Position numbers and translations under genes: made by a program. DNA of 62,779 nt, counting the filler, from a bacterium (GTDB lineage: Bacteria > UBA9089 > CG2-30-40-21 > SBAY01), in NCBI GenBank assembly GCA_040757115.1. It is 5 parts of 4 records of this genome, joined end to end, with 100 filler letters (N's around TTAATTAATTAA, not from the genome) between each part and the next. Parts side by side here need not be neighbours in the genome. Positions count along the whole stretch, not along the records: positions 21,330 to 35,150 come from JBFLYA010000100.1; 4 more parts are not named here. One strand, 5' to 3'. Position 1 is the first letter of the stretch; every line of letters begins with the position of its first letter. Below the pieces are notes generated by a model. The model ran no database searches and was not told the origin of the DNA. It saw nothing but the letters and a program-made list of their open reading frames with translations. This document shows, in pieces, positions 21,230 to 35,250 of this stretch.

Positions 21230-21329
21230 NNNNNNNNNNNNNNNNNNNNNNNNNNNNNNNNNNNNNNNNNNNNTTAATTAATTAANNNNNNNNNNNNNNN
21301 NNNNNNNNNNNNNNNNNNNNNNNNNNNNN
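21230..21329. other. Artificial contig linker
   Basis: 44 N + TTAATTAATTAA + 44 N. Confidence 0.98.
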
Positions 21330-21643: not shown

Positions 21644-22141
21644 GTAACTATTCAGCCACTGATTGACACGGATTAGCACGGATAAATACAGAGGGCAGAA
21701 GGCAGAGGGCAGATGAGAAAGGGAGAAACGGGGAAACGGAGAAAGGGAGAAATCTGTCTAATCTGCGTAATCTGCGGATATTTTCAGGAGAAGTTTCACG
21801 CCAAGCACGCAAAGAACGCAAAGGAAAATAAGGAAAAAATTATCTTTGCGACCTTTGCGTGAAAAAACTATTTTCAGGAGAATGCTCATGAACCGTTGGT
21901 TCACAACAGAAGAATGAAAATAGGAAAAAACAGGTGGAGGAAAGATTTTCTCTCTACTCTCTACTCTCTACTTTCTACTCTCTACTTCCTATTTTCAGGA
22001 GAAGTTTCACGCCAAGCACGCAAAGAACGCAAAGGAAAATAAGGGTAAAAATTATCTTTGCGTCCTTTGCGTGAAAAAACTATTTTTCAGGTCACGAATT
22101 TTCAGTGTTTCATCCGTGTTTATCTATGGTTGAATAATTAC
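21644..22141. mobile_element. Composite GTAA-terminus miniature element with nested short-repeat modules
   Basis: Starts GTAACTATTCAGCCACTGATTGACACGG and ends ...GGTTGAATAATTAC; the ends are homologous to 35744-35905 and 55869-55960. It contains a ~95-bp direct repeat (about 21780-21876 and 21990-22090) and heptamer arrays. No target duplication is visible. Confidence 0.6.
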
Positions 22142-22142
22142 A

Positions 22143-25100
22143 TTACTTTATTATCCCAAACTTCCCTACCTTCCTTCCACCCCCACCACCGGTTACGGTG
22201 TAGATATAGATGCCTGAAGCAAGGTTTTTGTTCAAAACATCCCATTTCTGTGTGCAGTCGGTTACTTCTATCTCATCTATCAGCTCGCCTGCAATACTGT
22301 AAATTCTGATGACTGAGCCCTGACGGACATTGCCAAAAGAGATATACCTTCCTCCCATCTTTGCATCATTTTTTCTCCAGGGGTTTGGATAGGCAAAGGC
22401 ATCATTGTTTGTTGGCGCAAAGGTTGGTGTTCCTCCTATGGCAAATGGAGAGAAATGAGGCACATAAGCAAAACAATAGTTTTCTATATAATTATGATAG
22501 GTAACTAAAGGCGTCCATATCCCATCTTCATAGTGGTAGATTAAAAGGTTTTCTTCCCTTATATTTGTCCCAGCAACAAAACCATTACTCTCTTGATATG
22601 GGAAACGAATGGTGACTGAACCTGGTAAGGATTGTGTTCCAAAAGGATTATCCTGTTCATCCCTGACTTCTATATCATAGACAATCCCGGCAAACGCAAT
22701 CCCGGAAGGAGGCGTTGGTGCTGTAGTTGAGGTGGAAACAGATACTATCACATTTGCTGTTCCCAGTGAACCTGAACCAAACTCTATCATTGGTCCTGTT
22801 ATTGTTCCATAAGTTATTGTTCCTTGCTGGGTATTCATATAAACCCAAATTGTGTTAAATCCTGTTATTGTTCCATATTTTGCTATAATTGTATCTGTCC
22901 CTCCGTTCGGTGAGGATTTAATGGTTGCAATGGTTGTTCCTGAACCAGAGATTATGGTGATTGTAGATGGAGAAATAGAGTTTGTAGTGTCGGTTAAAGT
23001 AGCTATGCCTGAGGTTGTTGCTATATTTCCATAGTTGTCGTAGAGAAGGACACTTAGAGTAAATGTGGCATTAATTGTAGTTGGTGCTGGTAAGAGGAGG
23101 GTTAAGGTAAAGGTAGCTGGTGGCAATGTTTGTGTTCCTTGAAACTCATAAGCACCCATATCTACAATGCGAACTTTCCTCGGATTGCCGTCTTTGTCAG
23201 TAGTAAGCCACGCTGGGACATAAGTGTTTGAACCAGCATCTATGCAAGGAGAAAGGGTACCAAGATGGAAATTGCCTCCTTCGATAAATTGAGGATTGAA
23301 TGAGATATCGTTTGGCCCAGCAGAGCAGCCAGAATAATTTTGGATCCCAGTTATTCCATTATTCCAGACGTCGTTGTACTCGATGACGGTAGGGCTTGAA
23401 AAATTGCAGTAGATACCATAGGCAGTATTACTTGTTGTACCATTCTTTGTAATGATGTTATTGGTGATGGCTGGGGAATTATTCTGGCAGACGATGCCAT
23501 AATATCTATTCCCTGATATTGTGTTGTTTATGATGGATGCAGAGGAAAAGTACTCGCAGATGATGCCAATATTGTCATTCCCTGAGATTGTATTATTTGT
23601 GATGCTTGGGGAGGAATAATCGTAGCAGTGGATACCGTCACCATTCTCTGATATTGTGTTATTAGTAATGGTCGGAGAGGAAGAGTGGCAGTAGACACCA
23701 GTATCATTCCCTGATATTGTGTTGTTAGTAATGGCTGAGGAGGACTTGTAGCAACAGATACCACAGTTATTCCCCAATATTGTGTTATCTATAACGGTTG
23801 GGCTTGCATTTGTGCAAAATATTCCATAATATCCTCCTGGTGCCCCGGTTATTCTAAATCCTGTAATTGTGCCATTTGCATTACTGCCATTAAAGGTTAC
23901 GGTATTTGTATTACTAATACCTTGTGCTGTAATTGTGCAAATATTTGCACCTGCTCCAATTAAGGCAATATTTTTGTTGATGTAGATTGCCTCGTTATAG
24001 GTTCCCGCAGAAACAAAAACTGTGCCCCCAATAGAGCAAACATTTATCCCTTTTTGAATAGTCCGATATGGTTTTGCCTGGCTGCCATCACCGGTTATAT
24101 CATCTCCTATTGTACTGACATAGACAGTACTTATTTGTGTAATTTGCTTAAAGTTTGCCGTGATGTTTTTGTTGCTATTCATTGTAATTTTAATGGGATT
24201 TGTATTTCCAGAAACATCCCCACTCCAAAAATCAAACTGATAGCCTGAATATGGATTAGCGGTAAGGGTTACCTCCTGACCTTGATTATAGACACCACCT
24301 GCTGGGTTAAGACTTACCCAACCACCATTTGTGGGATTGCAATTTACATTAAGGGTGTATTGGTTTGGAGGAGGGGTTATTCCATTTCCTGATGCAGTAA
24401 AATCAACCGTTGATTCATCTGGATCGTTAGAGTTTATTCTAAATGTGGCATTCTTTGCTCCAGTTGAGCCAGGAGAGAATCTTATGGTGGCTGAATCAGA
24501 AGAATTTGCTGAAATACTTGAGGGATAAGAAATAACTGAGAATTCAGAACTTCCAGAAATTCTTGTTAGGTTGGTTATATTGAGAGGAGCATTCCCTATG
24601 TTTTGGATGGTAAGGTTTAAATCTTTGCTTGTTCCTATTACTACATCGCCAAATGAAAGGCTATTTGAAGGAAGATTGATATCAGGAGTAGAGGATTCTA
24701 TCACATTGGGTCCTATTAAATACTGATCTGCATTAGAAGGTAACCTCGCCGAACCGCCTTTACCATCAGTGAACTCAAAATGATACTTATGGTTACCTGC
24801 TGATAATGTTATAGGGTTGGATTTATAAATCCCATTAGCAGAAGAACCACTGAACAACTGCATGACATAGACTGTAGCTTGAGGTGTACCACCATCTATG
24901 ATTAACCACTTTTTTTCGGGACTATCTCCATCTTGGTCGTAGTATTGTACATAATAGTAGAAGTTTGTATTTGTATCACCAGATAATGGATCAACAGAAG
25001 GATTGGAAAGCGTGGGATTATGGTTTTGGGGACTGGTTACTGTAACTTGAATTGGACCAAAATCTTCTGGTGAATTTCCAGTCTGTGAATTTTGTTCATC

Positions 25101-26288
25101 ATTCCACTGACCTTTGGTATCAACCACATGCAAGCCATAGTAATAAGTACCTGTTGAAGTTGGAGTATCGTAGAATGAACCAGAATAGTTTGTTTGTCCT
25201 GAAAGGGTTGTTGTTTGAATAGGATTGGGTGGTTGTGGCCAATTAGGATAATTATTCGTTCGCCAAAGTTCTGTCTCTTTTAAACCAATGTCATCCGAGA
25301 CAGTATAGGAAATAGTAAATGAATTGCCTAAAGTTACTGATCTTGGTTGAACATCAAAGGCATTGACGGTGGGAGGGTTGTCTTTAGTCCAGCAAGCACC
25401 ATATTCGTCCCAACTTGCCTGATTCATTATATGATAGGCGTAAAGGCTGACTCCTTCATATCCATAACCTTGGACAGTGTCACAGAATCTTTTAATCTCG
25501 CCATTATAAATTTCCCTTCCTATCTCCAGTTTTCCACCCTGCCCCACTGGCACTATAGGCTTAACAGAATCGCTGTAACCTCCTTGCTTCCAGACACTAT
25601 GCCAATAATCAAAATCATTCTTCATTCGTTGAAGTTCTTCTTCCGGAGTTAAAGGCCGTGCTGCCCAATATGCCTGCGGCATATTCCTATTACTATACTT
25701 GCCAAACTCAAGCCATGGAAACCATTCATGGCCTGTAACCCTTGCAAAGGAAGAATAAGCAATAAAACTTGTTGGATGTTTCTGTCTAATGCCTTTCATA
25801 TATTGTTCAGCTATAGTTCCTTTTCCCTGACCTTCGTATGCTGACTCTGCATTGATAACAAGCCCATCTATTCCAGAAATATCTAAAATCATGTTGGAAA
25901 CATCTAATTCAGAAACATTTGGTATTCCATATTGATCGGAACTGTAAACAAAATGCCACCCAAAAACTTTAATTCCAGAATTGTGAAATTGTTTTATTAC
26001 CTCACTGAACCCGCCGTATTGTGATGCCCAATTGTATAGATAGTCACCTGGATCAAGCCAGTAGCCATCGCTATCACCACATTTTATTATGACCCAATTA
26101 ACACCTGCAGATTTCAGTCTATTTAAAACTTTACTTAAGTCTCCATTTTCACATTCCCATATTCTCCATATCCAAAGTCCTTTACCCGTGGAAGCTAACA
26201 CTGGATAAGCAGAAAGGCAATTTATGATCAACATAATGCCAAAAATGGCTAGAATGATAATAGATTTGTATTTATTCCTTCCTATCAT
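22143..26288 (-). CDS. Large secreted multidomain protein: glycoside-hydrolase-like N-domain, Ig-like domains, right-handed beta-helix, C-terminal T9SS-A/FlgD-like sorting domain
   Basis: 1381 aa with a signal peptide. Recognisable segments: GKGLWIW...KCGD...DGLVINAESAYE; LSFGDV..GTSKDLNLTIQNIGNAPL (choice-of-anchor D-like); YTLNVN...GGVYNQGQEVTLTANP..GYQF..WSGD; VYVS..GDD..GDGSQAKPYRTIQ; ITNNTISGN repeats; HL...SPCIDAG...DMGAYE; YPNPW...IYSIAGELI...WD...LASGIYIY...GKFGIIK. Confidence 0.88.
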   Translation of the reverse strand: MIGRNKYKSIIILAIFGIMLIINCLSAYPVLASTGKGLWIWRIWECENGDLSKVLNRLKSAGVNWVIIKCGDSDGYWLDPGDYLYNWASQYGGFSEVIKQFHNSGIKVFGWHFVYSSDQYGIPNVSELDVSNMILDISGIDGLVINAESAYEGQGKGTIAEQYMKGIRQKHPTSFIAYSSFARVTGHEWFPWLEFGKYSNRNMPQAYWAARPLTPEEELQRMKNDFDYWHSVWKQGGYSDSVKPIVPVGQGGKLEIGREIYNGEIKRFCDTVQGYGYEGVSLYAYHIMNQASWDEYGACWTKDNPPTVNAFDVQPRSVTLGNSFTISYTVSDDIGLKETELWRTNNYPNWPQPPNPIQTTTLSGQTNYSGSFYDTPTSTGTYYYGLHVVDTKGQWNDEQNSQTGNSPEDFGPIQVTVTSPQNHNPTLSNPSVDPLSGDTNTNFYYYVQYYDQDGDSPEKKWLIIDGGTPQATVYVMQLFSGSSANGIYKSNPITLSAGNHKYHFEFTDGKGGSARLPSNADQYLIGPNVIESSTPDINLPSNSLSFGDVVIGTSKDLNLTIQNIGNAPLNITNLTRISGSSEFSVISYPSSISANSSDSATIRFSPGSTGAKNATFRINSNDPDESTVDFTASGNGITPPPNQYTLNVNCNPTNGGWVSLNPAGGVYNQGQEVTLTANPYSGYQFDFWSGDVSGNTNPIKITMNSNKNITANFKQITQISTVYVSTIGDDITGDGSQAKPYRTIQKGINVCSIGGTVFVSAGTYNEAIYINKNIALIGAGANICTITAQGISNTNTVTFNGSNANGTITGFRITGAPGGYYGIFCTNASPTVIDNTILGNNCGICCYKSSSAITNNTISGNDTGVYCHSSSPTITNNTISENGDGIHCYDYSSPSITNNTISGNDNIGIICEYFSSASIINNTISGNRYYGIVCQNNSPAITNNIITKNGTTSNTAYGIYCNFSSPTVIEYNDVWNNGITGIQNYSGCSAGPNDISFNPQFIEGGNFHLGTLSPCIDAGSNTYVPAWLTTDKDGNPRKVRIVDMGAYEFQGTQTLPPATFTLTLLLPAPTTINATFTLSVLLYDNYGNIATTSGIATLTDTTNSISPSTITIISGSGTTIATIKSSPNGGTDTIIAKYGTITGFNTIWVYMNTQQGTITYGTITGPMIEFGSGSLGTANVIVSVSTSTTAPTPPSGIAFAGIVYDIEVRDEQDNPFGTQSLPGSVTIRFPYQESNGFVAGTNIREENLLIYHYEDGIWTPLVTYHNYIENYCFAYVPHFSPFAIGGTPTFAPTNNDAFAYPNPWRKNDAKMGGRYISFGNVRQGSVIRIYSIAGELIDEIEVTDCTQKWDVLNKNLASGIYIYTVTGGGGGRKVGKFGIIK

Positions 26289-26310
26289 TTCTGTTTTTTT
26301 CCCTCATTTA

Positions 26311-26946
26311 TCATTTGCCTAGGGTAAAAGTAGAAAGTATTCCATTAAACATTTTGACATGATTGTTTTTGTCATTTAGCATTTCTCTAAGAGCTTTATC
26401 AACCATTTCTTTATGTGTAATCTTCCTTTTCTCTTCTCCACGAATTCTTGATTCAGGTATCATTCCAGGAATTCCCGACATAAAATTATAATCCAGCGAT
26501 ACAATGTAATATTTTCCTTTGTATTCTGTGTAACAATTGATTACGGTATCCCAACCACCTGCTCCTCCGTATACAATCCAGTAGTCTTTTTTAAAGGGGA
26601 TACCGTTCAAGATTACTTTTTCAGTAAAAACGCGATTGGACAACATTGGGTCACTAGAGTTTTCTCTAAAGTAATAACGCCCCCCAAAAGTTCCACTAAG
26701 AGAAACAAAAGGTTTTTTATCAACAAAGATGTGTATAACAGCTCTTTCTTCTCCTGGAAGACGGATGCTAAGTGCAGATTCATTAAAGCATTTTATGGGT
26801 TCGCCTAAATACTTTACTTTAAATCCATATCTCTGGTTTTTATAAATTTTCCACTGCGAAAAACTAGTTTTTCCTTGTTGTCCTCTCGCAGAAGAAATGC
26901 AAATCAACATCCCTATACTTATTATTAAAACCAAAACCTTTTTCAT
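26311..26946 (-). CDS. Secreted hypothetical protein, possibly PsbP-like fold
   Basis: 211 aa, AGGAGG SD, signal peptide, WKIYKNQRYGFKVKY and FNGILSTF motifs. Lies 22 bp upstream of the 1381-aa gene. Confidence 0.75.
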   Translation of the reverse strand: MKKVLVLIISIGMLICISSARGQQGKTSFSQWKIYKNQRYGFKVKYLGEPIKCFNESALSIRLPGEERAVIHIFVDKKPFVSLSGTFGGRYYFRENSSDPMLSNRVFTEKVILNGIPFKKDYWIVYGGAGGWDTVINCYTEYKGKYYIVSLDYNFMSGIPGMIPESRIRGEEKRKITHKEMVDKALREMLNDKNNHVKMFNGILSTFTLGK

Positions 26947-27070
26947 GTTACCTCCTCCTTCTCCCCCAACCCAAAACCAAGCTAATTATAACCCCTTTTA
27001 TTTTCATCCTATCTCCAATCTCCCTTCTCTAAACTTAAGCAAAAGATTAAAGTTTGAGAGAGAGTCCACA

Positions 27071-27106
27071 TCAAGCCAAAACCAGCAACCTCAAAACTTT
27101 TTTCAT
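27071..27106 (-). pseudogene. Degraded signal-peptide stub (MKKVLRLLVLA*)
   Basis: GAGG SD and ATG 10 nt after the hicA stop. Resembles the MKKILALVVLGLIW stub starts but is frameshifted. Confidence 0.4.
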
Positions 27107-27116
27107 TTTCCTCTTT

Positions 27117-27356
27117 TTATTCTAATAGGGCATTAATCTCATCATCCGTAAACCCAAATTGCCGAAAAATACGCAACACATAAGCGGGTGAAAGTTCTCC
27201 TGCTCCCATATCAATCGGAACAATTCTCTTTTTGCCTTCCATATAGCGAATATACAATTGGTGATCACCCCTTCCTTTTCTATAAAAGGCACAATCACCT
27301 CTTTGCAAAACACGGATTAACTCTTTCGGTTTAAGAGAAGGAATATTTTTACGCAT
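27117..27356 (-). CDS. hicA: HicA-family toxin (mRNA interferase)
   Basis: 79 aa: KPKELIRVL...KGRGDH...VPID...EL....LRIFRQFG. Overlaps the hicB stop. Confidence 0.85.
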   Translation of the reverse strand: MRKNIPSLKPKELIRVLQRGDCAFYRKGRGDHQLYIRYMEGKKRIVPIDMGAGELSPAYVLRIFRQFGFTDDEINALLE

Positions 27357-27615
27357 ATACAGCCTTTAATTCATATGATTCCAAAGCGGAATTTTTTACC
27401 TCTAGTGTCAAGAATTCATGTAGTTCTTTTATCGATATAGGCATACTGTATATGTCGCTTTCTTCCTTGCGAACATCCTCGAAGGAAAAAACAGCCTCCA
27501 TAAGTTTCTTAATTGCCTCTTCTTTAGTTATCCCTTGCCCTACCAATCCATTCTCTAAACACAAAGCTACCCAAAATTCTTTGCTTTTTCTAACTACGGC
27601 TGTATAGAAATTCAC
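27349..27615 (-). CDS. hicB: HicB-family antitoxin (short form)
   Basis: 88 aa: YTAVVRKSKEFWVALCLENGLVGQGITKEEAIKKL.EA. GGAGGT SD before a GTG start. Confidence 0.85.
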   Translation of the reverse strand: MNFYTAVVRKSKEFWVALCLENGLVGQGITKEEAIKKLMEAVFSFEDVRKEESDIYSMPISIKELHEFLTLEVKNSALESYELKAVYA

Positions 27616-27644
27616 CGCCTTTCACCTCCTATATTGCTCTTTTT

Positions 27645-27673
27645 ATTTTACAGCTTATTCCTGTTTTAAGCAA
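27645..27673 (-). promoter_or_regulatory. sigma70-type promoter of hicBA
   Basis: TTGCTT-17 bp-TAAAAT. Confidence 0.6.
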
Positions 27674-27704
27674 GGGTTAATAAGCCTTTATTTCCTTATT
27701 TTTT

Positions 27705-27938
27705 CTAAACTGCCTCATTGTAGGTTCCTGCCGCAACAATTATCCTATCGCCACTGGTTGCTGCATTTGCATTTATTGCCGCCTGGATGGTGGTATAACT
27801 TCCTGGCACATACAAATCCGCTGCCATTGTCTCATAGCCCCAAATTAGCCCTAAAACTACTAAAGCACAAACCTTTTTCAAAACTGATAGGAAATTGCTT
27901 TTTTGAGTGTTTTGGATATTATATCCATTTGTGCCCAT
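27705..27938 (-). pseudogene. N-terminal stub of a secreted beta-helix protein (signal peptide + cap), ends at AGTYNEAV*
   Basis: (L)KKVCALVVLGLIWGYETMAADLYVPGSYTTIQAAINA...GDRIIVAAGTYNEAV; the real start may be the TTG at 27881. Homologous to VSAGTYNEAIY of the 1381-aa protein. Confidence 0.8.
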
Positions 27939-27947
27939 TGTGAGGAT

Positions 27948-27976
27948 ATGTTACCACAAATTTTATCCTTTGTCAA
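27948..27976 (-). promoter_or_regulatory. sigma70-type promoter upstream of the stub
   Basis: TTGACA-17 bp-TAACAT with a TG extension. Confidence 0.6.
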
Positions 27977-28009
27977 CAAAAATCGGCTCTTTTGAAAATT
28001 AGTATCAAA

Positions 28010-28375
28010 GAGAGCGTTGCGTAGAACTTAAGGCTATATTTACGGTCCCTGCCATTGTGTTACCTCATTTCTTGCCATCTTTTTGTATTTCTTGACATTT
28101 TGGAGTCCCAAAAGACAACCCAGAGGGGCATTAACCAGTCGATAATTGGTTATTTGGATGCATTGTTCCCCTCCTAATTTAAAACTTACTTCTGTTGTCT
28201 TTATCGACTTAATCAATCATAACCTTTAACCACTTTAGAATTTACAACTATATAACACCTCCTCATCTTGATGTCAACTAAGCAGATTATCTCTTTTTTA
28301 TAGCTTTGGCATCTTTTATCACCCAAAACTCATCCCAAACCCGCACCATAACTAAAAACTATTTGCAACGCTCTC
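28010..28375. mobile_element. Non-autonomous IS remnant/MITE, 366 bp
   Basis: Terminal inverted repeat GAGAGCGTTGC / GCAACGCTCTC, flanked by 8-bp direct repeats GTATCAAA (28002-28009 and 28376-28383). Confidence 0.8.
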
Positions 28376-28471
28376 GTATCAAAAACCTGTTTGACTAAGA
28401 CAAATTCACAAAAAATCACCATTAACAATGATGAGTTAGAACACAATTATCCTCTGGGGGAAGTCGGGTCG

Positions 28472-28519
28472 GGGGACACAATACTAAATTTTGAGGGAAA
28501 AATAAAGTATTGTGTCTCC
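28472..28519. repeat. REP-like inverted repeat GGACACAATACT...AGTATTGTGTCTCC
   Basis: A related copy lies at about 58138-58190 (GGGACACAATACTTAATT...AATTAGTATTGTGACC). Confidence 0.55.
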
Positions 28520-28640
28520 GTAATTGCCCTTTGTGCTTTGTGTGCGGGATAGTTCAATCGATAGTTGCAAAAATCTACAACCCTAAATCCCATCTCAACC
28601 CACAACGACCGTATGCCGCAAAGCGTAAAATTCTATCATC

Positions 28641-29126
28641 CTAAATCTCCCCTGCCTGCTTTAATATCTCCAGATATAACTCATTACTCACCCTGAAGTC
28701 TTTGGCAATCAATTCATCAACATATGGCTTCACTTCTGAAATAAGTCCACCAGACTTAGCCGCCACCAATATACCAAGTGTCCCAGTCTTGCTGATTCCT
28801 ATTCTATCCGCCGTTATTCTCGCAGGTTTCTCATCTAACAAGACTAAATCTCCATTTAATTCTGATGCCAACACCAGGGTTTCACTTTCACCAGCACTTA
28901 GAGTTGCCCGAAGAATACTTACCGAAAGTCGATTTTGCACCTTTTCTCGCTTTATCCATTCCGCCTTTTCTACTTCTTGTGCTCCCAACCTTTCTTTTCC
29001 TTTTAGGGCAATTTCTTCATAAACTGCTTCAGGAATATAGAGCGTAGCATACATCGACTTTAATAGATGGAGCTTATTAATCTTAGCCAGCGAGATAAGC
29101 GGGGTGGCATTTGAGACGACAATCAT
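28641..29126 (-). CDS. DUF3368-type PIN-domain toxin
   Basis: 161 aa: VVSNATPLISLAKI...IPEAVYEEI...LSAGESETLVLA...LLDEKPAR...GTLGIL. ATGA overlap with the upstream gene. Confidence 0.88.
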   Translation of the reverse strand: MIVVSNATPLISLAKINKLHLLKSMYATLYIPEAVYEEIALKGKERLGAQEVEKAEWIKREKVQNRLSVSILRATLSAGESETLVLASELNGDLVLLDEKPARITADRIGISKTGTLGILVAAKSGGLISEVKPYVDELIAKDFRVSNELYLEILKQAGEI

Positions 29127-29398
29127 TTTTGCATCATCTCCTTTGCCACAGCAATATCTTCAGCTAACTCATCAGGTGTCTGTCTGAAGAACGGTATATT
29201 ATTCTTTGCTAGCACCTCGATAAACTCCATCCTGCTTATTTCCACCAATTCAGATGCCTTGCCTGAAGATATTTTGCCTTCCTGAAACAATTTTAAAGCA
29301 GCCAGCTCCTTTAATTTTTGAGAAAACTGCTGCTTTGTAGTACCCAGAATAGCAAGAACCTCATCTGGCATCTCTACTTGAGCTACACTCATACCCAT
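29123..29398 (-). CDS. UPF0175-family antitoxin
   Basis: ALKLFQEGKISSGKASELVEISRMEFIEVL....IP. GGAGGT SD favours the ATG at 29398 (track start 29407). Confidence 0.87.
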   Translation of the reverse strand: MGMSVAQVEMPDEVLAILGTTKQQFSQKLKELAALKLFQEGKISSGKASELVEISRMEFIEVLAKNNIPFFRQTPDELAEDIAVAKEMMQK

Positions 29399-29889
29399 TA
29401 AAGTCACCTCCTATCTTTTTATGAACGCTCTCGGATAAAATTTAGCGTTGATTTTATTAGCCGTTCCGGCTAATTATTTTTTCCTTCTCCCCCAATATTT
29501 TTGAGCGAAATTCTTACTTCCTTTCTTTACTTAGTTCCAATTTCCTTCTATATCTCCAGGTCCGCACATGGACAGGGATAAATTCTATCCCTACCGATAT
29601 ATGCACTTAGAAAAAATCCCACCTCCTTAATTCCCTGCCCGCGAAGGAGAAGGGAAAGTAGTTCCTTTAACCTTAATGCGGGGAGGTTTCTCTTCTAACC
29701 GCATAGATCGAATAATTGTGCTGAATAGTTACTTTTCCCCCTTATAATTTCCCTAAATCTTCCTTTGCAGTCTTTGCGTCCTGGCGTGAAACTTACTTTT
29801 TTTTCACGCAAAGGTTACTCTGAAAAATGAATTTATACCACGAATACCACGCATGGCACGAAGCTTCACTAAGACTATCACTTGTATTT

Positions 29890-30016
29890 GTAACTATTTC
29901 TCCAAATGAAATGCAAGGTGATTGGGTAATCAGGTGATTCAGATAAAGCGTTAAACCGGTCACTGATAACCGATAACTGATTACCCGGATTCCACTTCAG
30001 ATGGCTAAAGTATTAC
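29890..30016. mobile_element. Degenerate GTAA-terminus miniature element with heptamer arms
   Basis: GTAACTATTTCT...CACTTCAGATGGCTAAAGTATTAC; ends resemble 55638-55739. No clear target duplication. Confidence 0.4.
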
Positions 30017-30065
30017 TAATTTCAGGGTTATCTTCCTTAGTGTTCTTAGTGCCTTATTGTTTTTT

Positions 30066-30263
30066 TTATTGTCTCGCTAACCTTACCACCTTATTTATCT
30101 CTTCCTTTGAAAGTCCGGTTATCTTAGCAATCACATCAATATTAAATCCCTCTGAATACATAGCCTTAGCATCCTCTACTGCTTTCCTATATTCACCTTG
30201 TTGTATCCCTTGTTGTAATCCTTGTTGCATTCCTTGTTCTATCAATTTCATAGCGGTAGTCAT
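30066..30263 (-). CDS. Predicted internal in-frame small protein (RpnS-type antitoxin), 65 aa
   Basis: GAAAGGGGGTGA (30271-30282) sits 7 nt before an in-frame ATG (MTTAMKLIEQG...). The same unit survives alone at 33764-33949. Confidence 0.7.
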   Translation of the reverse strand: MTTAMKLIEQGMQQGLQQGIQQGEYRKAVEDAKAMYSEGFNIDVIAKITGLSKEEINKVVRLARQ

Positions 30264-31004
30264 TGTTGCTTCACCCCCTTTCTCGGAAATCTTCTTCACT
30301 ACCTCTACTACATCTTCTACTCCTATCTCGGTGCTACTGTAAATATACCGAATAACACCTTCCAAAAATTTTAGCCCTTTCTCCTCCTCGTAACACATCT
30401 GCCCTATCTCTAAAAAATCCCCGATATGCTCCCGCAATTTCCCCTCATCATATATGCTCTTCATCACTAATAAGGCTATCCTAAGAGTTACATCCAAAAG
30501 AACCTGCCCCTTTATCTCCTCATCACTATACCTCGATAAATCTGTCAATAAATAATCAAATTCAGGAATATATCTCTTTAATCCCTCATCTATCCCTTTA
30601 AAATATTCAGATAACCCTTTCACTACCCATCGTTCTTTACCGTGATAAAAAATAATAGGTATAACAGGTCTTAAACCCTCTTTCTGTTTGATATTTGTCT
30701 CCCATATCTTAAGGATATACCGTAGAAGCTGTAAATGCGGGTATTTGACTGCCTTGCTCTTATGTTCAAATAAAAGCGAAACCTTTACCTTGCTCTTAGC
30801 CTTGTAAAGACAATTATAAACTATGTCTGAAAAGTTCTCTTTTAGTTCCTCATCAATGTAAGAGTTATTATCCAATTCCAGGGTTGATAAATCAAGGTTT
30901 TTCTTCAGAGCATCGGGTAAAATGCTGTTGATAAAATTAGAGGCATTCTCTTTGTTTGAAAATATCTCTTTGAAGAAACTGTCATGTGGATTTGATATCT
31001 CCAT
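30066..31004 (-). CDS. rpn: Rpn (YhgA-like) PD-(D/E)XK recombination-promoting nuclease / putative transposase family protein
   Basis: 312 aa: NPHDSFFKEIFS, FSDIVY, LLFEHKS, LQLLRY, PVIPIIFYHG, C-terminal QQG repeats and IAKITGLS. Confidence 0.93.
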   Translation of the reverse strand: MEISNPHDSFFKEIFSNKENASNFINSILPDALKKNLDLSTLELDNNSYIDEELKENFSDIVYNCLYKAKSKVKVSLLFEHKSKAVKYPHLQLLRYILKIWETNIKQKEGLRPVIPIIFYHGKERWVVKGLSEYFKGIDEGLKRYIPEFDYLLTDLSRYSDEEIKGQVLLDVTLRIALLVMKSIYDEGKLREHIGDFLEIGQMCYEEEKGLKFLEGVIRYIYSSTEIGVEDVVEVVKKISEKGGEATMTTAMKLIEQGMQQGLQQGIQQGEYRKAVEDAKAMYSEGFNIDVIAKITGLSKEEINKVVRLARQ

Positions 31005-31029
31005 CTTATCTCCTTACCCCAGTTTTGTT

Positions 31030-31287
31030 CTAACTGGTATGATAACACATAACATAGAAGAAGTCAAGTTGTTTGTTTTTTTCCGCACAAATTAAGGCAA
31101 TGTTCTTGTTGATATAGATTGCCTCATTATAACTTCCAGGAGCAACAAAAATGGTATCGCCCGGATTTGCGGCATTTATTGCGGATTGAATGGTGGGATA
31201 AGACCCTGGCATATAACGGTCTGCTCCAAAGGCTGCATTTAAACCCAAAACTCCCAAAATTCCCAATAGTAATAACATCCTTTTCAT
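31030..31287 (-). pseudogene. N-terminal stub of a secreted beta-helix protein
   Basis: MKRMLLLLGILGVLGLNAAFGADRYMPGSYPTIQSAINAANPGDTIFVAPGSYNEAIYINKNIALICA, then reads into the rpn promoter. 38/42 nt identical to the YNEAIYINKNIALI segment of the 1381-aa gene. Confidence 0.85.
31039..31067 (-). promoter_or_regulatory. sigma70-type promoter of rpn
   Basis: TTGACT-17 bp-TATCAT with a TG extension; duplicated at 34723-34751. Confidence 0.7.
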
Positions 31288-31468
31288 CTTTATTCGACAT
31301 CCTTGATATTACTCACCTTTCTTAAGAAGGTTAAAACTGAGGTTGAAGTAGGAATATATTGCCTGATTATTTCTCTCTTTCCTCAAAGGAAAAATCTTCC
31401 TCTTTAACGATAACCTTGATTTTATCCACCTTGAACACACTTATTGAACCTACCCATAATGTCCAATC

Positions 31469-31963
31469 TCATAATCTTTCTAATACCAGATCACAGAGAC
31501 TTTCCTTGATCCAAATATCTTTTCGTCGCTTGATTTGTTGAATTAACAAAATTCCTTCATCTCTGATAAGAACATTTCTTTTTACTGCTTCCAGGAGAAC
31601 ACTTAATGTTCCTTTTGGTTTCAAACCATATCTTATGGCGACCTCTCTGGCAGTAGCATCGTCAATTAATACAAAATCTGCTTTTATCACAAGAGCCAAC
31701 TCAAGCGTTGTTTTTTCTCCTTCCTCTATCTCTGTTACACATTGAAGTTTATCTAACAGAACTTTTCTCATTTTAAATATCCCTCTGGAAAAGTAGTCAC
31801 GGATTAGGTAAGCATCTGATACTCCCTGACTTATCCCTGAAACAACTGTTTCCTCATAAACCTCTTCTGCCACAAAAACAGAACCATAGAGTTTCTGTAA
31901 TATATCAAGCCGTCCAAGTTTGCCAAACGCTATCAATGGTCCAGCATTACTGACAATTTTCAT
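31469..31963 (-). CDS. DUF3368-type PIN-domain toxin
   Basis: 164 aa: IVSNAGPLIAFGKL...EEVYEE...EEGE...VLIDDATAR...GTLSVL. Confidence 0.87.
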   Translation of the reverse strand: MKIVSNAGPLIAFGKLGRLDILQKLYGSVFVAEEVYEETVVSGISQGVSDAYLIRDYFSRGIFKMRKVLLDKLQCVTEIEEGEKTTLELALVIKADFVLIDDATAREVAIRYGLKPKGTLSVLLEAVKRNVLIRDEGILLIQQIKRRKDIWIKESLCDLVLERL

Positions 31964-32211
31964 CCCTTAATCTCCTCTATCATTTCATTCGTCACACGAG
32001 GTTCAATACCTCTTCTGCGTGCTTCTTCAATCATTTCTCTCAATGACAAATTGGCAATTTTAGCCGCTTTCCAGACTGATATACCGCCTTTGCGAAGCAT
32101 AATAAGAGCTTTTTCTATACGCATCTCACGCATACCAATCAAAAAGAACTGTTCAATCTCTTCTTCAGACAACCCTTTTGCTTCCTCTGGTAATTCTATA
32201 GTTATTTGCAT
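31960..32211 (-). CDS. UPF0175-family antitoxin
   Basis: 83 aa: IEKALIMLRKGGISVWKAAKIANLSLREMIEEARRRGI. GGAGGT SD; ATGA overlap with the toxin. Confidence 0.85.
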   Translation of the reverse strand: MQITIELPEEAKGLSEEEIEQFFLIGMREMRIEKALIMLRKGGISVWKAAKIANLSLREMIEEARRRGIEPRVTNEMIEEIKG

Positions 32212-32252
32212 AACTTACACCTCCAATTATTAGTTCCGTGAAAACAATGTTT

Positions 32253-32281
32253 AATATATCACCTTTGATTGCAAATGTCAA
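32253..32281 (-). promoter_or_regulatory. sigma70-type promoter of the UPF0175/PIN pair
   Basis: TTGACA-17 bp-TATATT. Confidence 0.65.
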
Positions 32282-32379
32282 AAGAAAATTGACTCACCAC
32301 AGCAATTCTCAGTGAAGGAGAAGACAGAGAAGTTTATCACAAAATTTCCTCATCATCCCCTTACTGATTATTAGCTTCC

Positions 32380-32571
32380 TCAAAGAAGGTGGGATAAAAT
32401 TTCCACCCTACGACTGTATGTGTCAGCAGAGATATAGATAGTATCCCCATTATTTGCGGCATTTATTGCGGATTGGATTGATTGACCTGGATTAACAAAC
32501 AAATCCGCCGCCATTACCTCCCTGGATAGGAAAACTACTCCTAAAATTACTAACCTAACAATCTTCCACAT
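32380..32571 (-). pseudogene. N-terminal stub of a secreted beta-helix protein
   Basis: MWKIVRLVILGVVFLSREVMAADLFVNPGQSIQSAINAANNGDTIYISADTY, then unrelated sequence. Starts 20 nt after the vapC stop with a GAGGGG SD. Confidence 0.8.
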
Positions 32572-32591
32572 TTTTTCCCCTCTTCCTTATT

Positions 32592-33011
32592 TTATTCAGG
32601 TCTTTTGGCAAATCCAAACTGAACAAAATGAGAATCATTAGTAAAAGCCTCAGTAAGTCTTTGCCATTTCATCACTGCAAAGGTCGGGCAGTCAGCAAAT
32701 GAAAAGGTTTTATCCTCATATTTCTTAAATATTTTCCATGCCTCTTTTTCAATCTCAGAGGTAATATGCACTATCTGAATCAACCCTGCACTTTTAGAAA
32801 TCTCTATTCCCTCTCCAAATTCAACTGCTATTTTATGAATTGCATTATTTCTTATCAATGTATAGGTTTCACATAGGATAAAGTTAGTAGTGACATACCT
32901 ATACCCTTCTTCTATCAAATCTTTGTCTATTTGTGCGGCTATTTTGTGAAAGGTATCTTTCTTATTGGTTAAAGCACACCATGCCCAGGTATCTACAAGA
33001 ATCCTTTTCAT
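32592..33011 (-). CDS. vapC: VapC-type PIN-domain toxin
   Basis: 139 aa with the acidic tetrad retained: ILVDT, ILCETY, SFADC, FTNDSHF. Confidence 0.88.
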   Translation of the reverse strand: MKRILVDTWAWCALTNKKDTFHKIAAQIDKDLIEEGYRYVTTNFILCETYTLIRNNAIHKIAVEFGEGIEISKSAGLIQIVHITSEIEKEAWKIFKKYEDKTFSFADCPTFAVMKWQRLTEAFTNDSHFVQFGFAKRPE

Positions 33012-33255
33012 TATGATTTCACTCCATACAAATACTTGTTATGGTTTTCTGCTAAATCCTCTGGCCCTTCAAAAAAACCTTCTCTTAATCTACACATAAA
33101 ACTTTTTGCCTGCTTAAGGTTCTGATTGTGCTGAAGCCAATCTAAAATGATGGTAGATGTCCATTCTGCCACAGTTTTTTTTCATCTTCAGCCATTTTCC
33201 TTAAAATTCTGAATTCCTTTTTAGGAATTGAAACCTGTAAAGCCACTCTTTCCAT
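33011..33255 (-). pseudogene. VapB/RHH-type antitoxin frameshifted in an A8 tract
   Basis: AGGAGG SD; MERVALQVSIPKKEFRILRKMAEDEKK / TVAEWTSTIILDWL...GPEDLAENHNKYLYGVKS*. Adding one A at 33175-33182 restores the frame, and the stop then overlaps the vapC start (TAATG). Confidence 0.8.
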
Positions 33256-33260
33256 CTTTA

Positions 33261-33488
33261 TCACCTCCTAAAACTTTTTTGATACTCTCTATCAACCATG
33301 GCAATACTTTTGTCGATATAGACTACCTCGTTATAGCTTCCAGCGACAACATAAACAGTATCCCCAGGATTTACTGTATTTACAGCAGACTGAATGGTTG
33401 AATATTGCGAAGGCACATACAAATCCGCTGCATTTGCCTCATAGCCCCAAATTAGCCCCAATACTACTAACGCTAAAATTTTTTTCAT
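33261..33488 (-). pseudogene. N-terminal stub of a secreted beta-helix protein
   Basis: MKKILALVVLGLIWGYEANAADLYVPSQYSTIQSAVNTVNPGDTVYVVAGSYNEVVYIDKSIAMV, then runs into the antitoxin SD. The signal region is nearly identical in DNA to the 27705 stub. Confidence 0.85.
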
Positions 33489-33578
33489 TTTATCAACACA
33501 TCCTATTTAATTTTAATATAGACTAAAGACCAAATAAAGTACCACAAGCATCCTGCTTGTCCTCTTCATTTCTTAACA

Positions 33579-33727
33579 TAGTGCTTTGTCGCTACTCGAT
33601 TGTTGTCCCCCGCTGGCGGGGGATTAAGAGGGTGGAATATGAAATCTGAAATAGAAGAATCCACCCCCCTACCCCCGCCAGCCGGGGACAACGGCCAATC
33701 AACCACTTGAATGGCGACAGAGCAATA
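33579..33727. mobile_element. Miniature inverted-repeat element with a GC-rich REP-like internal palindrome
   Basis: Ends TAGTGCTTTGTCGC / GCGACAGAGCAATA; interior TGTCCCCCGCTGGCGGGGG...CCCCCGCCAGCCGGGGACA. Confidence 0.6.
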
Positions 33728-33763
33728 GTGTTCCGCTGTGGTTTTAGTGCCTTAGTGGTTTTT

Positions 33764-33949
33764 TTATTGTCTCGCTAACCTTACCACCTTATTTATCTCT
33801 TCCTTTGAAAGTCCGGTTATCTTAGCAATCACATCAATATTAAATCCCTCTGAATACATAGCTTTAGCAGCCTCTACTGCTTTCCTATATTCACCTTGCT
33901 GTAATCCTTGTTGCATTCCTTGTTCTATCAATTTCATAGCAGTAGTCAT
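33764..33949 (-). CDS. Stand-alone RpnS-like small protein (C-terminus of the decayed second rpn copy), 61 aa
   Basis: Nearly identical to the last 65 aa of Rpn (one QQGI unit fewer, D to A). The internal SD GAAAGGGGGTGA is retained. Confidence 0.72.
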   Translation of the reverse strand: MTTAMKLIEQGMQQGLQQGEYRKAVEAAKAMYSEGFNIDVIAKITGLSKEEINKVVRLARQ

Positions 33950-33974
33950 TGTTGCTTCACCCCCTTTCTTGGAA

Positions 33975-34167
33975 GAGCTCTCTCAACAATTCAGAACTTA
34001 GATTTAACCGAAGTTTGCGTCTAAATATTTTACTATCTTCCCCCCATTTTTTACCCATAATTTCACAATCTGGAGGCATTGTTCCTTCTATCGAAACAAT
34101 ACGCAAGTATAACACTATGAATAGTTTTTTCACTACGATACATTCTATTGATTTGTTGAGAAAGCTC
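33975..34167. mobile_element. MITE/IS remnant, 193 bp, inserted in the rpn pseudogene
   Basis: Inverted ends GAGCTCTCTCAACAATTCA / TGATTTGTTGAGAAAGCTC (17/19). GGAA target duplication confirmed against the intact rpn copy. Confidence 0.85.
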
Positions 34168-34228
34168 GGAAATCTTCTTCACTACCTCTACTACCTTTTC
34201 TACTCCTATCTCGGTGCTACTGTAAATA

Positions 34229-34530
34229 GTAATGGGTCAGCTATCGGTGGTAAAAAATATTCCTCTCGCAAAGGCGCAAAGGAGGCAAAGAAATTTCAAA
34301 TCACAAATTCCAAAGGACAAATAAATCCCAATGACCAAAATTCAAATTTCCAAATTAATCCGTTCCTCGTTATTCGTTGAACGAATAACGAGGAGTCTTA
34401 AACACTGAACTCTAAACGAATAGAATTTGGTGTTTGGAATTTGGAATTTATTTGTAATTTGGTGCTTGAAATTTGGAATTTCTGACTACTTTACGTTCTT
34501 TGCGCCTCCCACTAATAACTGATGGATTAC
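34229..34530. mobile_element. IS66-like (GTAA-terminus) miniature element inserted in the rpn pseudogene
   Basis: GTAATGGGTCAG...CTGATGGATTAC; 8-bp duplication TGTAAATA confirmed against the intact rpn. Has AAATTCC/TTGGAAT heptamer arms and a 15-bp perfect inverted repeat at 34364-34394. Confidence 0.88.
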
Positions 34531-34767
34531 TGTAAATATACCGAATAACCCCTTCCAAATTCCAGGGTTGATAAATCAAGGTTTTTCTTCAGAGCATCGG
34601 GTAAAATGCTGTTGATAAAATTAGAGGCATTCTCTTTGTTTGAAAATATCTCTTTGAAGAAACTGTCATGTGGATTTAATCTCTCCATCTTATCTCCTTA
34701 GCCCAGCTTTGTTCTAACTGGTATGATAACGCATAACATAAAAGAAGTCAAATTGTTTGTTTTTTTC

Positions 34768-34797
34768 CGCACCAATTAAGGCAATATTTTTGGTAAT
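34768..34797 (-). pseudogene. Residual beta-helix stub end (ITKNIALIGA)
   Basis: 34772-34792 is identical over 21 nt to 23956-23976 of the 1381-aa gene. Same junction to the rpn promoter as at about 31083. Confidence 0.7.
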
Positions 34798-34800
34798 TAT

Positions 34801-34959
34801 TCAACCACAGATGGACTTATGAATATCTCTTATAATTTCTTCCGGACTACGATTGTCTTCCCAACTTCCACATAAAGAAAGCAATTTCCTCTTTCGTTCA
34901 TCTAAGTCTTTTCGATGGAAAGGTTCCAGGAATGTCACCGCCACATAATATGTTTTTTT
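34801..34959 (-). pseudogene. C-terminal fragment of an antitoxin-like small protein, cut by a repeat element
   Basis: KKTYYVAVTFLEP...LLSLCGSWEDNRSPEEIIRDI; the start given in the track lies inside the inserted element. Confidence 0.5.
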
Positions 34960-35052
34960 GTAAGCGTTCAGGTGGTGTAACAAAAGGAGATGTGGAGATT
35001 AAGGAGATAGGGAGATATTATTAAAAAAAATTGAAATTAATAGAAACTAATA
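34960..35052. mobile_element. Truncated copy of the 237-bp GTAA-terminus element
   Basis: GTAAGCGTTCAGGTGGTGTAACAAAAGGAGATGTGGAG... matches 43411 onward, then switches abruptly to unrelated sequence (possible IS end) running to the contig edge. Confidence 0.8.
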
Positions 35053-35150
35053 CTCGATGTTCAAGTTTTTTAGTTTTAGGGGCATAAAGTCCTTATTTTT
35101 ATTTTAGCTCAAGTGAGACAATATGCTGTTCTCCATTTCAAGAAAGGGGT

Positions 35151-35250
35151 NNNNNNNNNNNNNNNNNNNNNNNNNNNNNNNNNNNNNNNNNNNNTTAATT
35201 AATTAANNNNNNNNNNNNNNNNNNNNNNNNNNNNNNNNNNNNNNNNNNNN
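35151..35250. other. Artificial contig linker
   Basis: 44 N + TTAATTAATTAA + 44 N. Confidence 0.98.

Follow-up and report, generated by a model that had tools for sequence, protein, structure and literature searches.

What accounts for a row of bacterial genes in which toxin-antitoxin (TA) and nuclease genes alternate with truncated starts of a secreted-protein gene? The row lies on a 13.8-kb contig (positions 21330-35150) of the window, the 62,779-nucleotide stretch of DNA analysed here. The window consists of five contigs joined by linkers (N/TTAATTAATTAA), and a 4868-aa gene found in it therefore belongs to another contig. The array contig contains four stubs, each comprising a signal peptide and a beta-helix cap and all co-oriented on the minus strand, together with two shorter scars. 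In alternation with stubs and scars stand hicBA, two UPF0175/PIN pairs, vapBC with a frameshift, and two copies of rpn, one intact and the other broken. The minus-strand order and positions given in a preliminary description of this DNA were confirmed for all elements.

The preliminary description had named misassembly as something that would refute it. Logan contigs of run X1, possibly the source sample, displayed 0 differences over 30964-33659, which includes three stubs and two TA modules, and over 22096-27912, with an even depth of ~330 in both, and the key junctions were reproduced by this second assembler. In the repeat-rich gaps (27912-28345 and others), linkage is provided by the original assembly only. 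An assembly artefact is rejected as the origin of the array.

The four stubs align with one another and with residues ~723-782 of the product of a 1381-aa gene, both in alignments and in HMM matches. Stub 1 (33261-33488, 75 aa; HMM E 1.5e-40) ends directly past K-S-I-A-M-V, and stub 2 (32380-32571, 63 aa; HMM match) starts 20 nt past the vapC stop. Stub 3 (31030-31287, 85 aa; Pfam DUF1565, E 9.5e-4, under the cut-off) retains cap similarity to ~31084, the remainder of the ORF extending into the rpn leader. Stub 4 (27705-27938, 77 aa) ends past G-T-Y-N-E-A-V; its HMM alignment begins at residue 20, and its start is probably the TTG at 27881. The stub ORFs are open, with start codons and ribosome-binding sites kept. 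One scar (34770-34797), also on the minus strand, consists of ~27 nt of cap tail (K-N-I-A-L-I-G-A codons) on the left end of the broken rpn, where a direct repeat (30874-31113 and 34558-34797) is 95% identical. The other (27075-27106, minus strand), 10 nt past the hicA stop, corresponds to the initial 32 nt of a signal-peptide ORF and runs on into a cap in one contig of run X2; at this end of the array the scar remains and there is no intact gene. The sole intact cap in the window (23943-24122, minus strand) lies within the 1381-aa secreted protein (22143-26288; Pfam DUF1565, NosD and Beta_helix, C-terminal Por_Secre_tail). Its position at ~residue 727 corrects the earlier view that this gene carries the cap at its N terminus.

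Concerning the modules, all on the minus strand, a vapB-like antitoxin remnant (34812-34959) has lost both of its ends and is fused to the cap-tail scar. It shares 97% identity with G001:C193:2816-2963, a stretch belonging to an antitoxin that is complete there (81 aa) and has a PIN toxin of 132 aa behind it. The broken rpn copy (33726-34767) comprises a 5′ fragment (34527-34688, 53 aa; Pfam Transposase_31, E 1.6e-9) and a 3′ part whose RpnS-type internal ORF of 61 aa is intact (33764-33949), and its repeats D3, D7 and D10 match the intact copy. The vapB antitoxin gene (33011-33264) is split into two ORFs by a frameshift in an A run, a 1-nt deletion as judged against an 81%-identical module of G024, and lies beside vapC (32592-33011; Pfam PIN, E 1.2e-9). 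Pfam matches identified two pairs of UPF0175 antitoxin and DUF3368 (PIN-like) toxin. The best promoter-like site of the region (32281-32253, hexamer matches 11/12) lies ahead of the first pair (31469-32211), and the second (28641-29407) is 97% identical to G001:C101, which has no flanking stub. The intact rpn unit (29981-31083), whose ends were set by a stub-less copy (G001:C770) and tandem copies, has its own promoter, a 312-aa Rpn (30066-31004; Transposase_31, E 4.9e-48) and an internal RpnS start accompanied by a variable M-Q-Q-G repeat whose number differs among copies. The hicBA module (27117-27615) was assigned with Pfam, with hicA (27117-27356) at 27.3 bits against a HicA_toxin cut-off of 27 and the hicB-like antitoxin (27349-27615) giving a weak DUF7387 match.

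Dispersed repeats are also present. A MITE-type hairpin (33587-33706, no strand assigned; inverted repeat I9) lies between the rpn remnant and stub 1 and has copies in G001, and the summed depth in bin 33316-33776 is very high; its lone Rfam match, to a miRNA, was spurious and far under threshold. Two short MITE-type repeats (28010-28375, no strand assigned) have dozens of G001 copies, many at contig ends, and coincide with depth peaks in read-run contigs. A recurrent promoter-plus-leader element (27885-27982, minus strand; promoter-like site 27976-27948) is joined to the start of stub 4. The element is also found upstream of a TA pair in G001:C101, and has the same end base in C122.

The architecture is not confined to this contig. 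In 24 species genomes of the phylum, short frames (<130 aa) accounted for 25 of 105 cap matches at E<=1e-11, and the alternation of stubs and modules recurred in at least nine other species genomes, with co-oriented arrays of two to four stubs in G018, G024, G006, G013, G023 and G022. Stubs were absent among 44 cap matches from 34 loci of other phyla, and none of 10 distant Rpn loci from metagenomes bore one. We examined 43 loci and defined 40 stubs. In 26 of the 40, the closest same-strand ORF to one or both sides belonged to a TA, Rpn or restriction-modification family, a proportion that describes the stubs and not a random sample, as the fetched loci had been picked for short frames. Such neighbours were located downstream of 19 of the 29 stubs having a neighbour, and upstream of 20 of 40. 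In contrast, no TA-family match (0/10) was found among the same-strand upstream neighbours of intact G001 cap genes. The 14 stubs without a TA neighbour may be ordinary pseudogenes. Rpn-type genes were the commonest non-TA cargo (7 of 112 flanking ORFs scanned), and the cargo of relatives includes a restriction-modification system. Junctions are tight: toxin stop and stub start are separated by −10 to +33 nt in at least ten cases, and the stub stop overlaps the cargo start by 4 nt in at least four.

Breakpoints are clustered. Cap similarity is lost within ~4 codons after K-x-I-x-L-I/V in 13 of the 43 stubs and scars, ahead of ~10 different cargos in five genomes; the other 30 breakpoints fall outside this hotspot, and a second cluster is found near I-S-G-F-x-I (4 loci). 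Joins inside the hotspot are spread over ~10 nt, and there is therefore no single crossover point. Codon choice at the hotspot is unusually fixed among the phylum's intact genes (ATC in 13/15, background 0.22; GCC in 10/11, background 0.18), and comparable fixation is absent in the set from other phyla, whose residues there differ. The match between the tail of stub 3 and the intact gene (38/42 nt, all differences synonymous), already recognized in the preliminary description, was confirmed and can be attributed to this family-wide fixation. The suggestion made there that the cap is a hotspot for repeated TA capture is thus supported by the clustering directly past K-x-I-A-L-I/V, by the recurrence of the alternation and by the difference in neighbours between stubs and intact genes.

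Several loci bear on how a module comes to lie between two gene starts. In G024:C72 the order is stub, vapBC and continuing gene, the 5′ end of the gene matching the stub at 72% identity across 307 nt. In G005:C98 a truncated copy is followed by a 698-aa membrane protein gene and the continuing gene (85% over 394 nt), and G024:C50 has a similar layout. The 5′ parts of stubs have been exchanged: between the window and G001:C280, dS is 0.04 for rpn and 1.65 for the preceding stubs, and the cap tail moving with rpn is only ~27 nt. The same stub/ORF6N junction is present in G006 and G024, and the vapBC module common to the window and G024 (81%) extends exactly from start codon to stop codon. Stub pairs exhibit dN/dS values of 0.15-0.46, and their divergence therefore took place mostly under protein-level selection, in working genes. 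We found no pair of empty and filled sites; the orthologous locus is absent from G001 and from sister genomes of G024, and the neighbouring gene had no match in a metagenome scan. Excision, circle or stub-to-core joints were not seen in contigs, from which rare forms could escape.

The explanation that we favour, and regard as evenly poised between right and wrong, is that modules insert repeatedly and duplicatively into the 5′ end of the gene family and are then swapped through recombination between stubs. Each stub would be the 5′ end, displaced or duplicated, of a gene from a multi-copy family that encodes secreted beta-helix proteins. Free-standing addiction and defence modules (type II TA pairs and Rpn nucleases, joined in relatives by a restriction-modification system) would have inserted repeatedly within the first 60-120 codons, most commonly in the ~10 nt directly past the K-x-I-A-L-I/V-G codons. 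If insertion is duplicative, a module would land with a copy of the gene start on either side, the one upstream being cut short to a stub, and repeated rounds would generate a row of alternating stubs and modules, all in one orientation. The conserved stub sequence could later serve as portable homology, allowing modules to pass from one array or genome to another. Stubs as such would be by-products, although several may supply a ribosome-binding site or promoter, or be translationally coupled to the module. Of this picture, the architecture, its recurrence, the TA association, the clustered breakpoints and the swapping of stub 5′ parts are shown; duplication upon insertion, the sequence of steps and the route of recombination are inferred. 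It is plausible that the TA modules act against deletion.

We propose the name N-terminal displacement for this process, which would mirror the C-terminal displacement of Rhs and CDI systems. In CDI, orphan toxin-immunity modules likewise accumulate in arrays. For Rhs (Jackson et al. 2009, PMC2935791), as in the present arrays, modules accumulate beside a conserved gene, displaced units keep a fragment of the conserved region and so allow later homologous exchange, and the cargo consists of poison/antidote pairs. Here, however, the 5′ ends are displaced upstream, the cargo consists of free-standing cytoplasmic TA, Rpn or restriction-modification genes unfused to the conserved gene, and the conserved gene encodes a beta-helix surface protein without a known toxin role. 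Integron arrays, including TA-rich chromosomal ones, similarly contain small, co-oriented, promoter-poor cassettes with many TA pairs, and canonical integrons with TA cassettes occur in the same phylum (G005:C43). In our arrays, by contrast, the spacer is a gene fragment of ~200 nt. A crude scan detected no attC in the window array or between stub-array cassettes (2 in the G005 integron; 2 stray matches in 223 kb of stub loci), intI was absent from the array contig, and stub-rich genomes had no integrase over the cut-off. Integrons are ruled out, as attC is absent. Integrative elements such as SXT/R391 in prfC and the CIMEs of streptococci insert at the start of a gene, supply it with a new 5′ end and can accrete in tandem. 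They resemble our loci in leaving a displaced partial gene copy at one border, in forming arrays by repeated use of the target, and in that small integrase-less elements can persist between repeated sites. They differ in that neither an integrase nor a defined att core was found here, many paralogues and not one locus serve as targets, and each cargo is a single small module. Campbell-type or homology-facilitated illegitimate recombination, known from laboratory work and transformation, also places a module between two short homologous segments, one of them truncated, with join points near the end of the homology; to our knowledge, no description presents it as a recurring layout of genomes linked to a single gene family. 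Rpn (YhgA-like) is a toxin with an intragenic antitoxin, RpnS, according to PMC10400941, and the rpn of the window agrees with that account in its Transposase_31 nuclease domain, in the internal start yielding a small C-terminal protein and in a four-residue repeat varying in number among copies. The difference is that rpn is here one cargo among many.

We also considered a dedicated cassette system, in which the K-x-I-A-L-I-G segment is an attachment site within the coding sequence. A cassette, the module plus the following gene start, would be integrated and excised there by a trans-acting recombinase or nuclease, such as an Rpn-type PD-(D/E)XK enzyme or a tyrosine recombinase with its gene elsewhere, as in an integron with another site. 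The clustering ahead of unrelated cargos, the fixed synonymous sites and the frequency of Rpn-type cargo are consistent with this, as is a 2538-nt contig of G013 with three cassettes and an identical 127-nt stub sequence at each end, which must therefore be a circle or a tandem repeat. However, a de Bruijn assembler yields a terminal 127-nt repeat for any repeat, the spread of joins and the many breakpoints elsewhere do not fit a defined site, no recombinase is tied to the arrays, and PMC10400941 presents Rpn proteins as toxin/antitoxin defence genes, not conventional transposases. A role of Rpn in array building is conjecture, and we consider such a system unlikely. More doubtful is simple, non-duplicative illegitimate insertion into tandem paralogues followed by deletion of the gene bodies, with 5′ stubs persisting because they are harmless or because they drive module expression. 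Tandem paralogues do exist (G001:C79 has a pair of cap genes, and runs of three occur in other phyla), G007:C176 is a plain frameshifted gene, and selection for expression could favour the breakpoints, the G-rich G-x-G codons acting as ribosome-binding site (L048, L052). Nevertheless, this scheme needs at least ten independent deletions running precisely from module end to the next start codon. In addition, no 3′ gene remainders lie behind the modules in the window, and G006 (98% complete) has at least seven stubs but, at E<=1e-8, lacks any intact gene bearing that N-terminus.

That the stubs are working genes, encoding short secreted or leader peptides of the adjoining TA operons (translational-coupling leaders or regulators), seems highly improbable. 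Stop and start codons that overlap at either side of the stub in several arrays, the retained initiation signals and dN/dS below 1 would agree with it, but stub ends vary (profile positions 24 to 70), some copies contain frameshifts or in-frame stops, the same modules occur without stubs (G001:C101, G001:C770 and the G005 integron), and dN/dS below 1 is expected if divergence precedes truncation. Finally, the silent bank of the preliminary description, in which alternative N-termini recombine in frame with the beta-helix core while TA modules guard against deletion, is barely tenable: co-orientation, open frames with good start sites, recombination within stubs and the match of stub 3 speak for it, but the stubs encode just a signal peptide and ~40 conserved residues with almost no variable information, an in-frame swap would delete ~720 residues because the nearest intact cap is internal, G006 has stubs without a partner gene, recombinant joints are missing from contigs as noted above, and codon fixation accounts for the match.

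A full-text literature search found no prior description of such arrays. In this groundwater bacterium, selfish TA and nuclease genes stand in rows behind the chopped starts of genes for secreted surface proteins, and the rows in the bacterium and its relatives suggest a hitherto undescribed mode by which TA and nuclease genes are inserted and accumulate.

The window consists of five draft-genome contigs, joined to 62.8 kb by N runs flanking a TTAATTAATTAA linker (6526-6625, 21230-21329, 35151-35250 and 49006-49105). Because these contigs are unrelated, gene neighbourhood across the joins carries no meaning. The 4868-aa gene that adjoins the array in the window belongs to another contig, and the whole finding is confined to a single one (21330-35150). 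All elements listed in the preliminary description were found on its minus strand by ORF and sequence checks. The stubs are four ORFs of 63-85 aa (33488-33261, 32571-32380, 31287-31030 and 27938-27705), which begin like a signal peptide, continue with the cap motif and can be aligned with one another. The reported 38/42-nt synonymous match between the tail of the stub at 31287 and the intact gene was also correct. The stubs align with residues ~723-782 of the 1381-aa protein (22143-26288). According to Pfam, the cap in this protein is internal, with ~720 residues of other domains ahead of it, a point on which the preliminary description had to be corrected. The protein has a long N-terminal region without a Pfam match, followed by Ig-like (ASH/HYDIN), InlB B-repeat-like and beta-helix regions, and a sub-threshold Por-type sorting tail at the C-terminus (24.1 bits against a 27-bit cut-off).

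Contigs of sequencing run X1, made with a different assembler, showed no differences from the window over 30964-33659, holding three stubs and two toxin-antitoxin (TA) modules, and over 22096-27912, holding the fourth stub, hicBA, the scar and both downstream genes; depth was even at ~330. Since X1 may be the source sample, the agreement tests the assembler rather than the biology. Short dispersed repeats interrupt the pieces, and across these gaps the order is that of the original assembly alone. Together with the same pattern in independent genomes, the agreement rules out an assembly artefact. No excision, circle or stub-to-core joint was present in the run contigs compared with the window; the contig joints listed were at dispersed repeats or had short sides. 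Run X3 yielded no contigs matching the window. A back-joint from 29412 to 27922 was rejected as a circle, as it reproduces a promoter-leader/TA arrangement like that of G001, the nearest genome compared (24% of sampled words in common).

Several families of short dispersed MITE-type repeats are present on the contig (28010-28135, 28250-28375, 33587-33706, 34955-35072 and 21640-21704). G001 carries dozens of copies, frequently at contig ends; in X1 their summed depth is very high, and the assemblies are broken there around the array. A recurrent element of ~100 nt (27885-27982 in the window, 1317-1414 of locus L042 on G001 contig C101, and 2152-2351 of locus L067 on C122) comprises a strong promoter-like site and a leader, and always ends at the same base. 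In one genome it is joined to a TA pair, in the window to a stub and elsewhere to other repeats; it could represent a portable promoter or else encode a small RNA. The promoter scan gave 28 sites against 24±5 in shuffles, overall not above the shuffles, and promoter statements thus rest on the few best sites only. Rfam returned only a spurious miRNA match on the array contig (31 bits against a 150-bit threshold).

Pfam upheld the module identities proposed earlier (HicA, UPF0175/DUF3368 twice, PIN and Transposase_31). As in type II TA systems, small genes of toxin and antitoxin families are adjacent: HicA with a HicB-like partner (a weak match), UPF0175 with DUF3368 twice, and PIN with a vapB whose frameshift, judged against an 81%-identical module of the related genome G024, lies in an A run. 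The intact rpn encodes a Transposase_31 nuclease (Pfam E 4.9e-48). Rpn/RpnS is reported to combine a PD-(D/E)XK Transposase_31 domain with an internal start from which a small C-terminal protein is made; this protein has a 4-residue repeat of variable number, the variation being tied to RpnS specificity (PMC10400941). The window gene has these features. A second rpn is in fragments, with its 61-aa internal ORF still intact. M-Q-Q-G-type units (window 30190-30240; locus L002 on G001 contig C770, 448-1482; locus L040, 2822-3655) number 3 to 5 in the window and in G001 contigs C280 and C338, and ~11 in C770. This variation between rpn copies is consistent with that study.

Alignment showed that the stub sequence is homologous to the cap preceding the helix in intact DUF1565/NosD/Beta_helix proteins; Pfam on the window stubs themselves gave just one sub-threshold DUF1565 match, in one stub. 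A stub HMM matched intact genes of 380-1756 aa in G001, with E values down to 9e-31. About 20 G001 genes bear the cap by this profile, two of them stubs, one located directly before rpn and the other behind a hicBA pair and rpn. Among the 24 species genomes of the phylum, 25 of 105 cap matches (E<=1e-11) lay in frames of less than 130 aa. The alternation of TA modules and stubs noticed in the window recurs in these relatives, as searched with the stub profile. We examined 40 fetched loci, picked for short frames, along with the window contig and two G001 contigs. Cap ORFs counted as stubs when their stop came no more than 25 residues from where the profile match ended and no contig end interrupted them; 40 stubs resulted. 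In G018, G024, G006, G013, G023 and G022, two to four co-oriented stubs form arrays in which they alternate with small modules. On contig C31 of G013 (locus L053, 1-2538), four stubs and three TA cassettes take up the full length, and the same 127 nt are found at its two ends; the contig represents either a circle or a tandem array that collapsed in assembly. In other phyla, none of 44 cap hits (34 loci, found with a single stub as query) was a stub. Stubs were likewise absent from 10 distant metagenome Rpn loci, and a metagenome scan with the 211-aa neighbour gave 132 pattern matches and no relative.

The cargo survey covered 112 ORFs on the same strand as the stubs (50-420 aa, no more than 1.3 kb from a stub) and excluded 13 longer ones. 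The most frequent families were HicA (6), UPF0175, ParE, PIN and HicB-like (5 each), followed by PDDEXK_2, UPF0150, HEPN and DUF3368 (4 each), and Transposase_31 and ORF6N (3 each). Taking as neighbour the longest ORF (50 aa or more) on the same strand within 450 nt, we found a TA, Rpn or restriction-modification gene downstream of 19 of the 29 stubs having a neighbour there, upstream of 20 of 40, and on at least one side of 26 of 40, in loci picked for short frames. The remaining 14 adjoin housekeeping, giant surface-protein or membrane glycosyltransferase-like genes or small ORFs of no known family, and one of them is a plain frameshifted gene. Upstream of intact G001 cap genes, no TA family was found among scanned same-strand ORFs (0/10). 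Small genes of the PDDEXK_3, DUF5618 and 23S-rRNA-intervening-sequence-protein families occur there (L022 1764-2141, L023 2080-3017 and L032 2074-2316) and might represent a further class of small selfish insert. Large membrane proteins adjoin stubs or truncated cap genes at five loci (L074 4555-6651, L083 254-2050, L084 2229-3968, L066 3642-5333 and L076 555-2366). Two of them match glycosyltransferase families in Pfam (PMT_2, TMEM260-like); the others that were scanned gave no match. These proteins could act as partners of the beta-helix surface proteins or represent a further type of cargo.

In three loci a module is flanked by two copies of one gene start, one truncated and one continuing. 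On G024 contig C72, the copies around vapBC are 72% identical over 307 nt; on contig C98 of G005, those around a membrane-protein gene are 85% identical over 394 nt; the third pair, on G024 contig C50, is weaker. At the array end toward which units would be displaced, the window keeps a 32-nt scar and three relative loci have a continuing gene; most contigs break earlier. Modules are also common to different families of the phylum: a vapBC is 81% identical from start codon to stop codon, and a stub/ORF6N junction is common to G006 and G024. A stub-less rpn copy on G001 contig C770 marks the left end of the rpn unit. Between the window and G001 contig C280, rpn has a dS of 0.04 and the preceding stubs a dS of 1.65, indicating that stub sequences were exchanged. 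Stub sharing between the two is limited to ~27 nt of the cap tail, and this tail alone precedes the broken rpn copy of the window, fused to a truncated antitoxin. The dN/dS of stub pairs (0.15-0.46) is as expected if divergence happened as parts of working genes.

These observations suggest that addiction and defence modules may have been inserted duplicatively, again and again, into the 5' end of a beta-helix gene family, and that homologous exchange between stubs would have followed. We regard this as the simplest account of the arrays and give it an even chance of being right. The mechanism is inferred from anatomy, since no pair of empty and filled sites was found in G001, sister genomes of G024 or metagenome scans, and contigs rather than raw reads were compared. 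No empty site was found in the sister genomes of G024, and G001 has no orthologue of hicBA or of the 211-aa and 1381-aa genes, only paralogue-level partial matches (67-71%).

The points of truncation bear on whether a specific site is involved. The four stub ends of the window spread over ~12 codons. The preliminary description had named randomly scattered breakpoints as evidence against its proposals. In 13 of 43 stubs and scars, resemblance to the cap stops no more than about four codons past K-x-I-x-L-I/V, and these ends form a cluster; a second, smaller cluster lies near an I-S-G-F-x-I motif in the first helix turn, and the other ends are scattered from profile position 24 to 63. Ends at the hotspot precede about ten different cargos, namely vapB, rpn, two ParE-type pairs, two UPF0175/DUF3368 pairs, an MNT/HEPN pair, a restriction-modification system, a MazF-type pair and ORF6N. 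Beside the main hotspot, silent sites in the phylum's intact genes are unusually fixed, namely at profile position 58 (ATC in 13 of 15 Ile codons; background 0.22) and 63 (GCC in 10 of 11 Ala codons; background 0.18), whereas the adjoining columns are mostly at background. Paralogues are not independent and the p-values are therefore too strong; the contrast between columns is found within the same sequences. A hybrid promoter formed by a -35-like hexamer in the cap codons was rejected as a general cause, as three junctions fit by eye and the others do not.

Taking these features into account, we tentatively consider that a conserved 5' segment of the gene family, around the K-x-I-A-L-I-G codons, might have been co-opted as the attachment site of a new kind of cassette system. 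Cassettes of module plus gene start would integrate there, the target would regain a new start and the old start would be pushed upstream, giving integron-like arrays that lack attC and IntI; the catalyst might be a nuclease of the Rpn type. The hotspot and the fixed silent sites speak for a dedicated site-specific system, but the observed joins are spread over ~10 nt rather than placed at one base, and no enzyme is linked, making it rather unlikely. Simple insertion followed by deletion is less likely still, because it requires many precise deletions: in at least ten cases the distance between a toxin stop and the start of the following stub is -10 to +33 nt, and in at least four a stub stop overlaps the cargo start by 4 nt, junctions hard to obtain by insertion and independent deletions. 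This coupling would fit stubs that work as leader peptides, a very improbable reading given that stub ends vary, some copies are decayed and the same modules also exist stub-free. The suggestion in the preliminary description that stubs form a bank of N-termini recombining with the core hardly survives, as the intact cap sits internally, the stubs are low in information and G006 has at least seven of them with no intact partner.

An integron cassette array was ruled out, with no attC in the array and no integrase over the cut-off in stub-rich genomes. Our attC scan, a crude regex and folding search rather than IntegronFinder's model, recovered two of three complete attC of a G005 integron; it found none at 27-35 kb of the window, a lone window match inside the giant gene, and two isolated matches in 223 kb of stub loci. 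No tyrosine recombinase was present among the Pfam-scanned ORFs of the array contig. Integron integrase (TIGR02249) exceeded the curated cut-off in 7 of 24 phylum genomes, and in none of the stub-rich G018, G024, G006, G013 and G023, although G023 and G024 contain sub-threshold fragments. The integron of G005 (contig C43; L139 1500-5700) is canonical, with RelE-type, MazF-type and HicAB/HicA-type cassettes and clear attC. Its intI is divergent with one in-frame stop, and the attC sites between cassettes are 60-130 nt.

Duplicative insertion of this kind would mirror the C-terminal displacement model for rhs genes (PMC2935791). The toxins carried by Rhs/CDI systems are domains of the conserved gene itself, whereas the modules here are free-standing: they come from cytoplasmic TA families, use starts and promoters of their own, and carry no toxin fused to the conserved gene. 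Full-text literature searches turned up no account of gene-start stubs alternating with TA modules, and the term 'N-terminal displacement' did not occur in the papers listed by one of these searches.

For annotation of these genomes, short signal-peptide ORFs should be regarded with caution as recombination relics and not genes. How chromosomal TA and small defence modules move without a recombinase of their own is a long-standing open question, and the arrays offer a concrete, recurrent landing site with readable junctions across a phylum of uncultivated bacteria. If the cap is a true attachment site, it would represent a second cassette-array principle alongside integrons. On the conservative reading too, a conserved gene start would serve as portable homology around which selfish modules collect, the mirror of tip displacement in Rhs/CDI.
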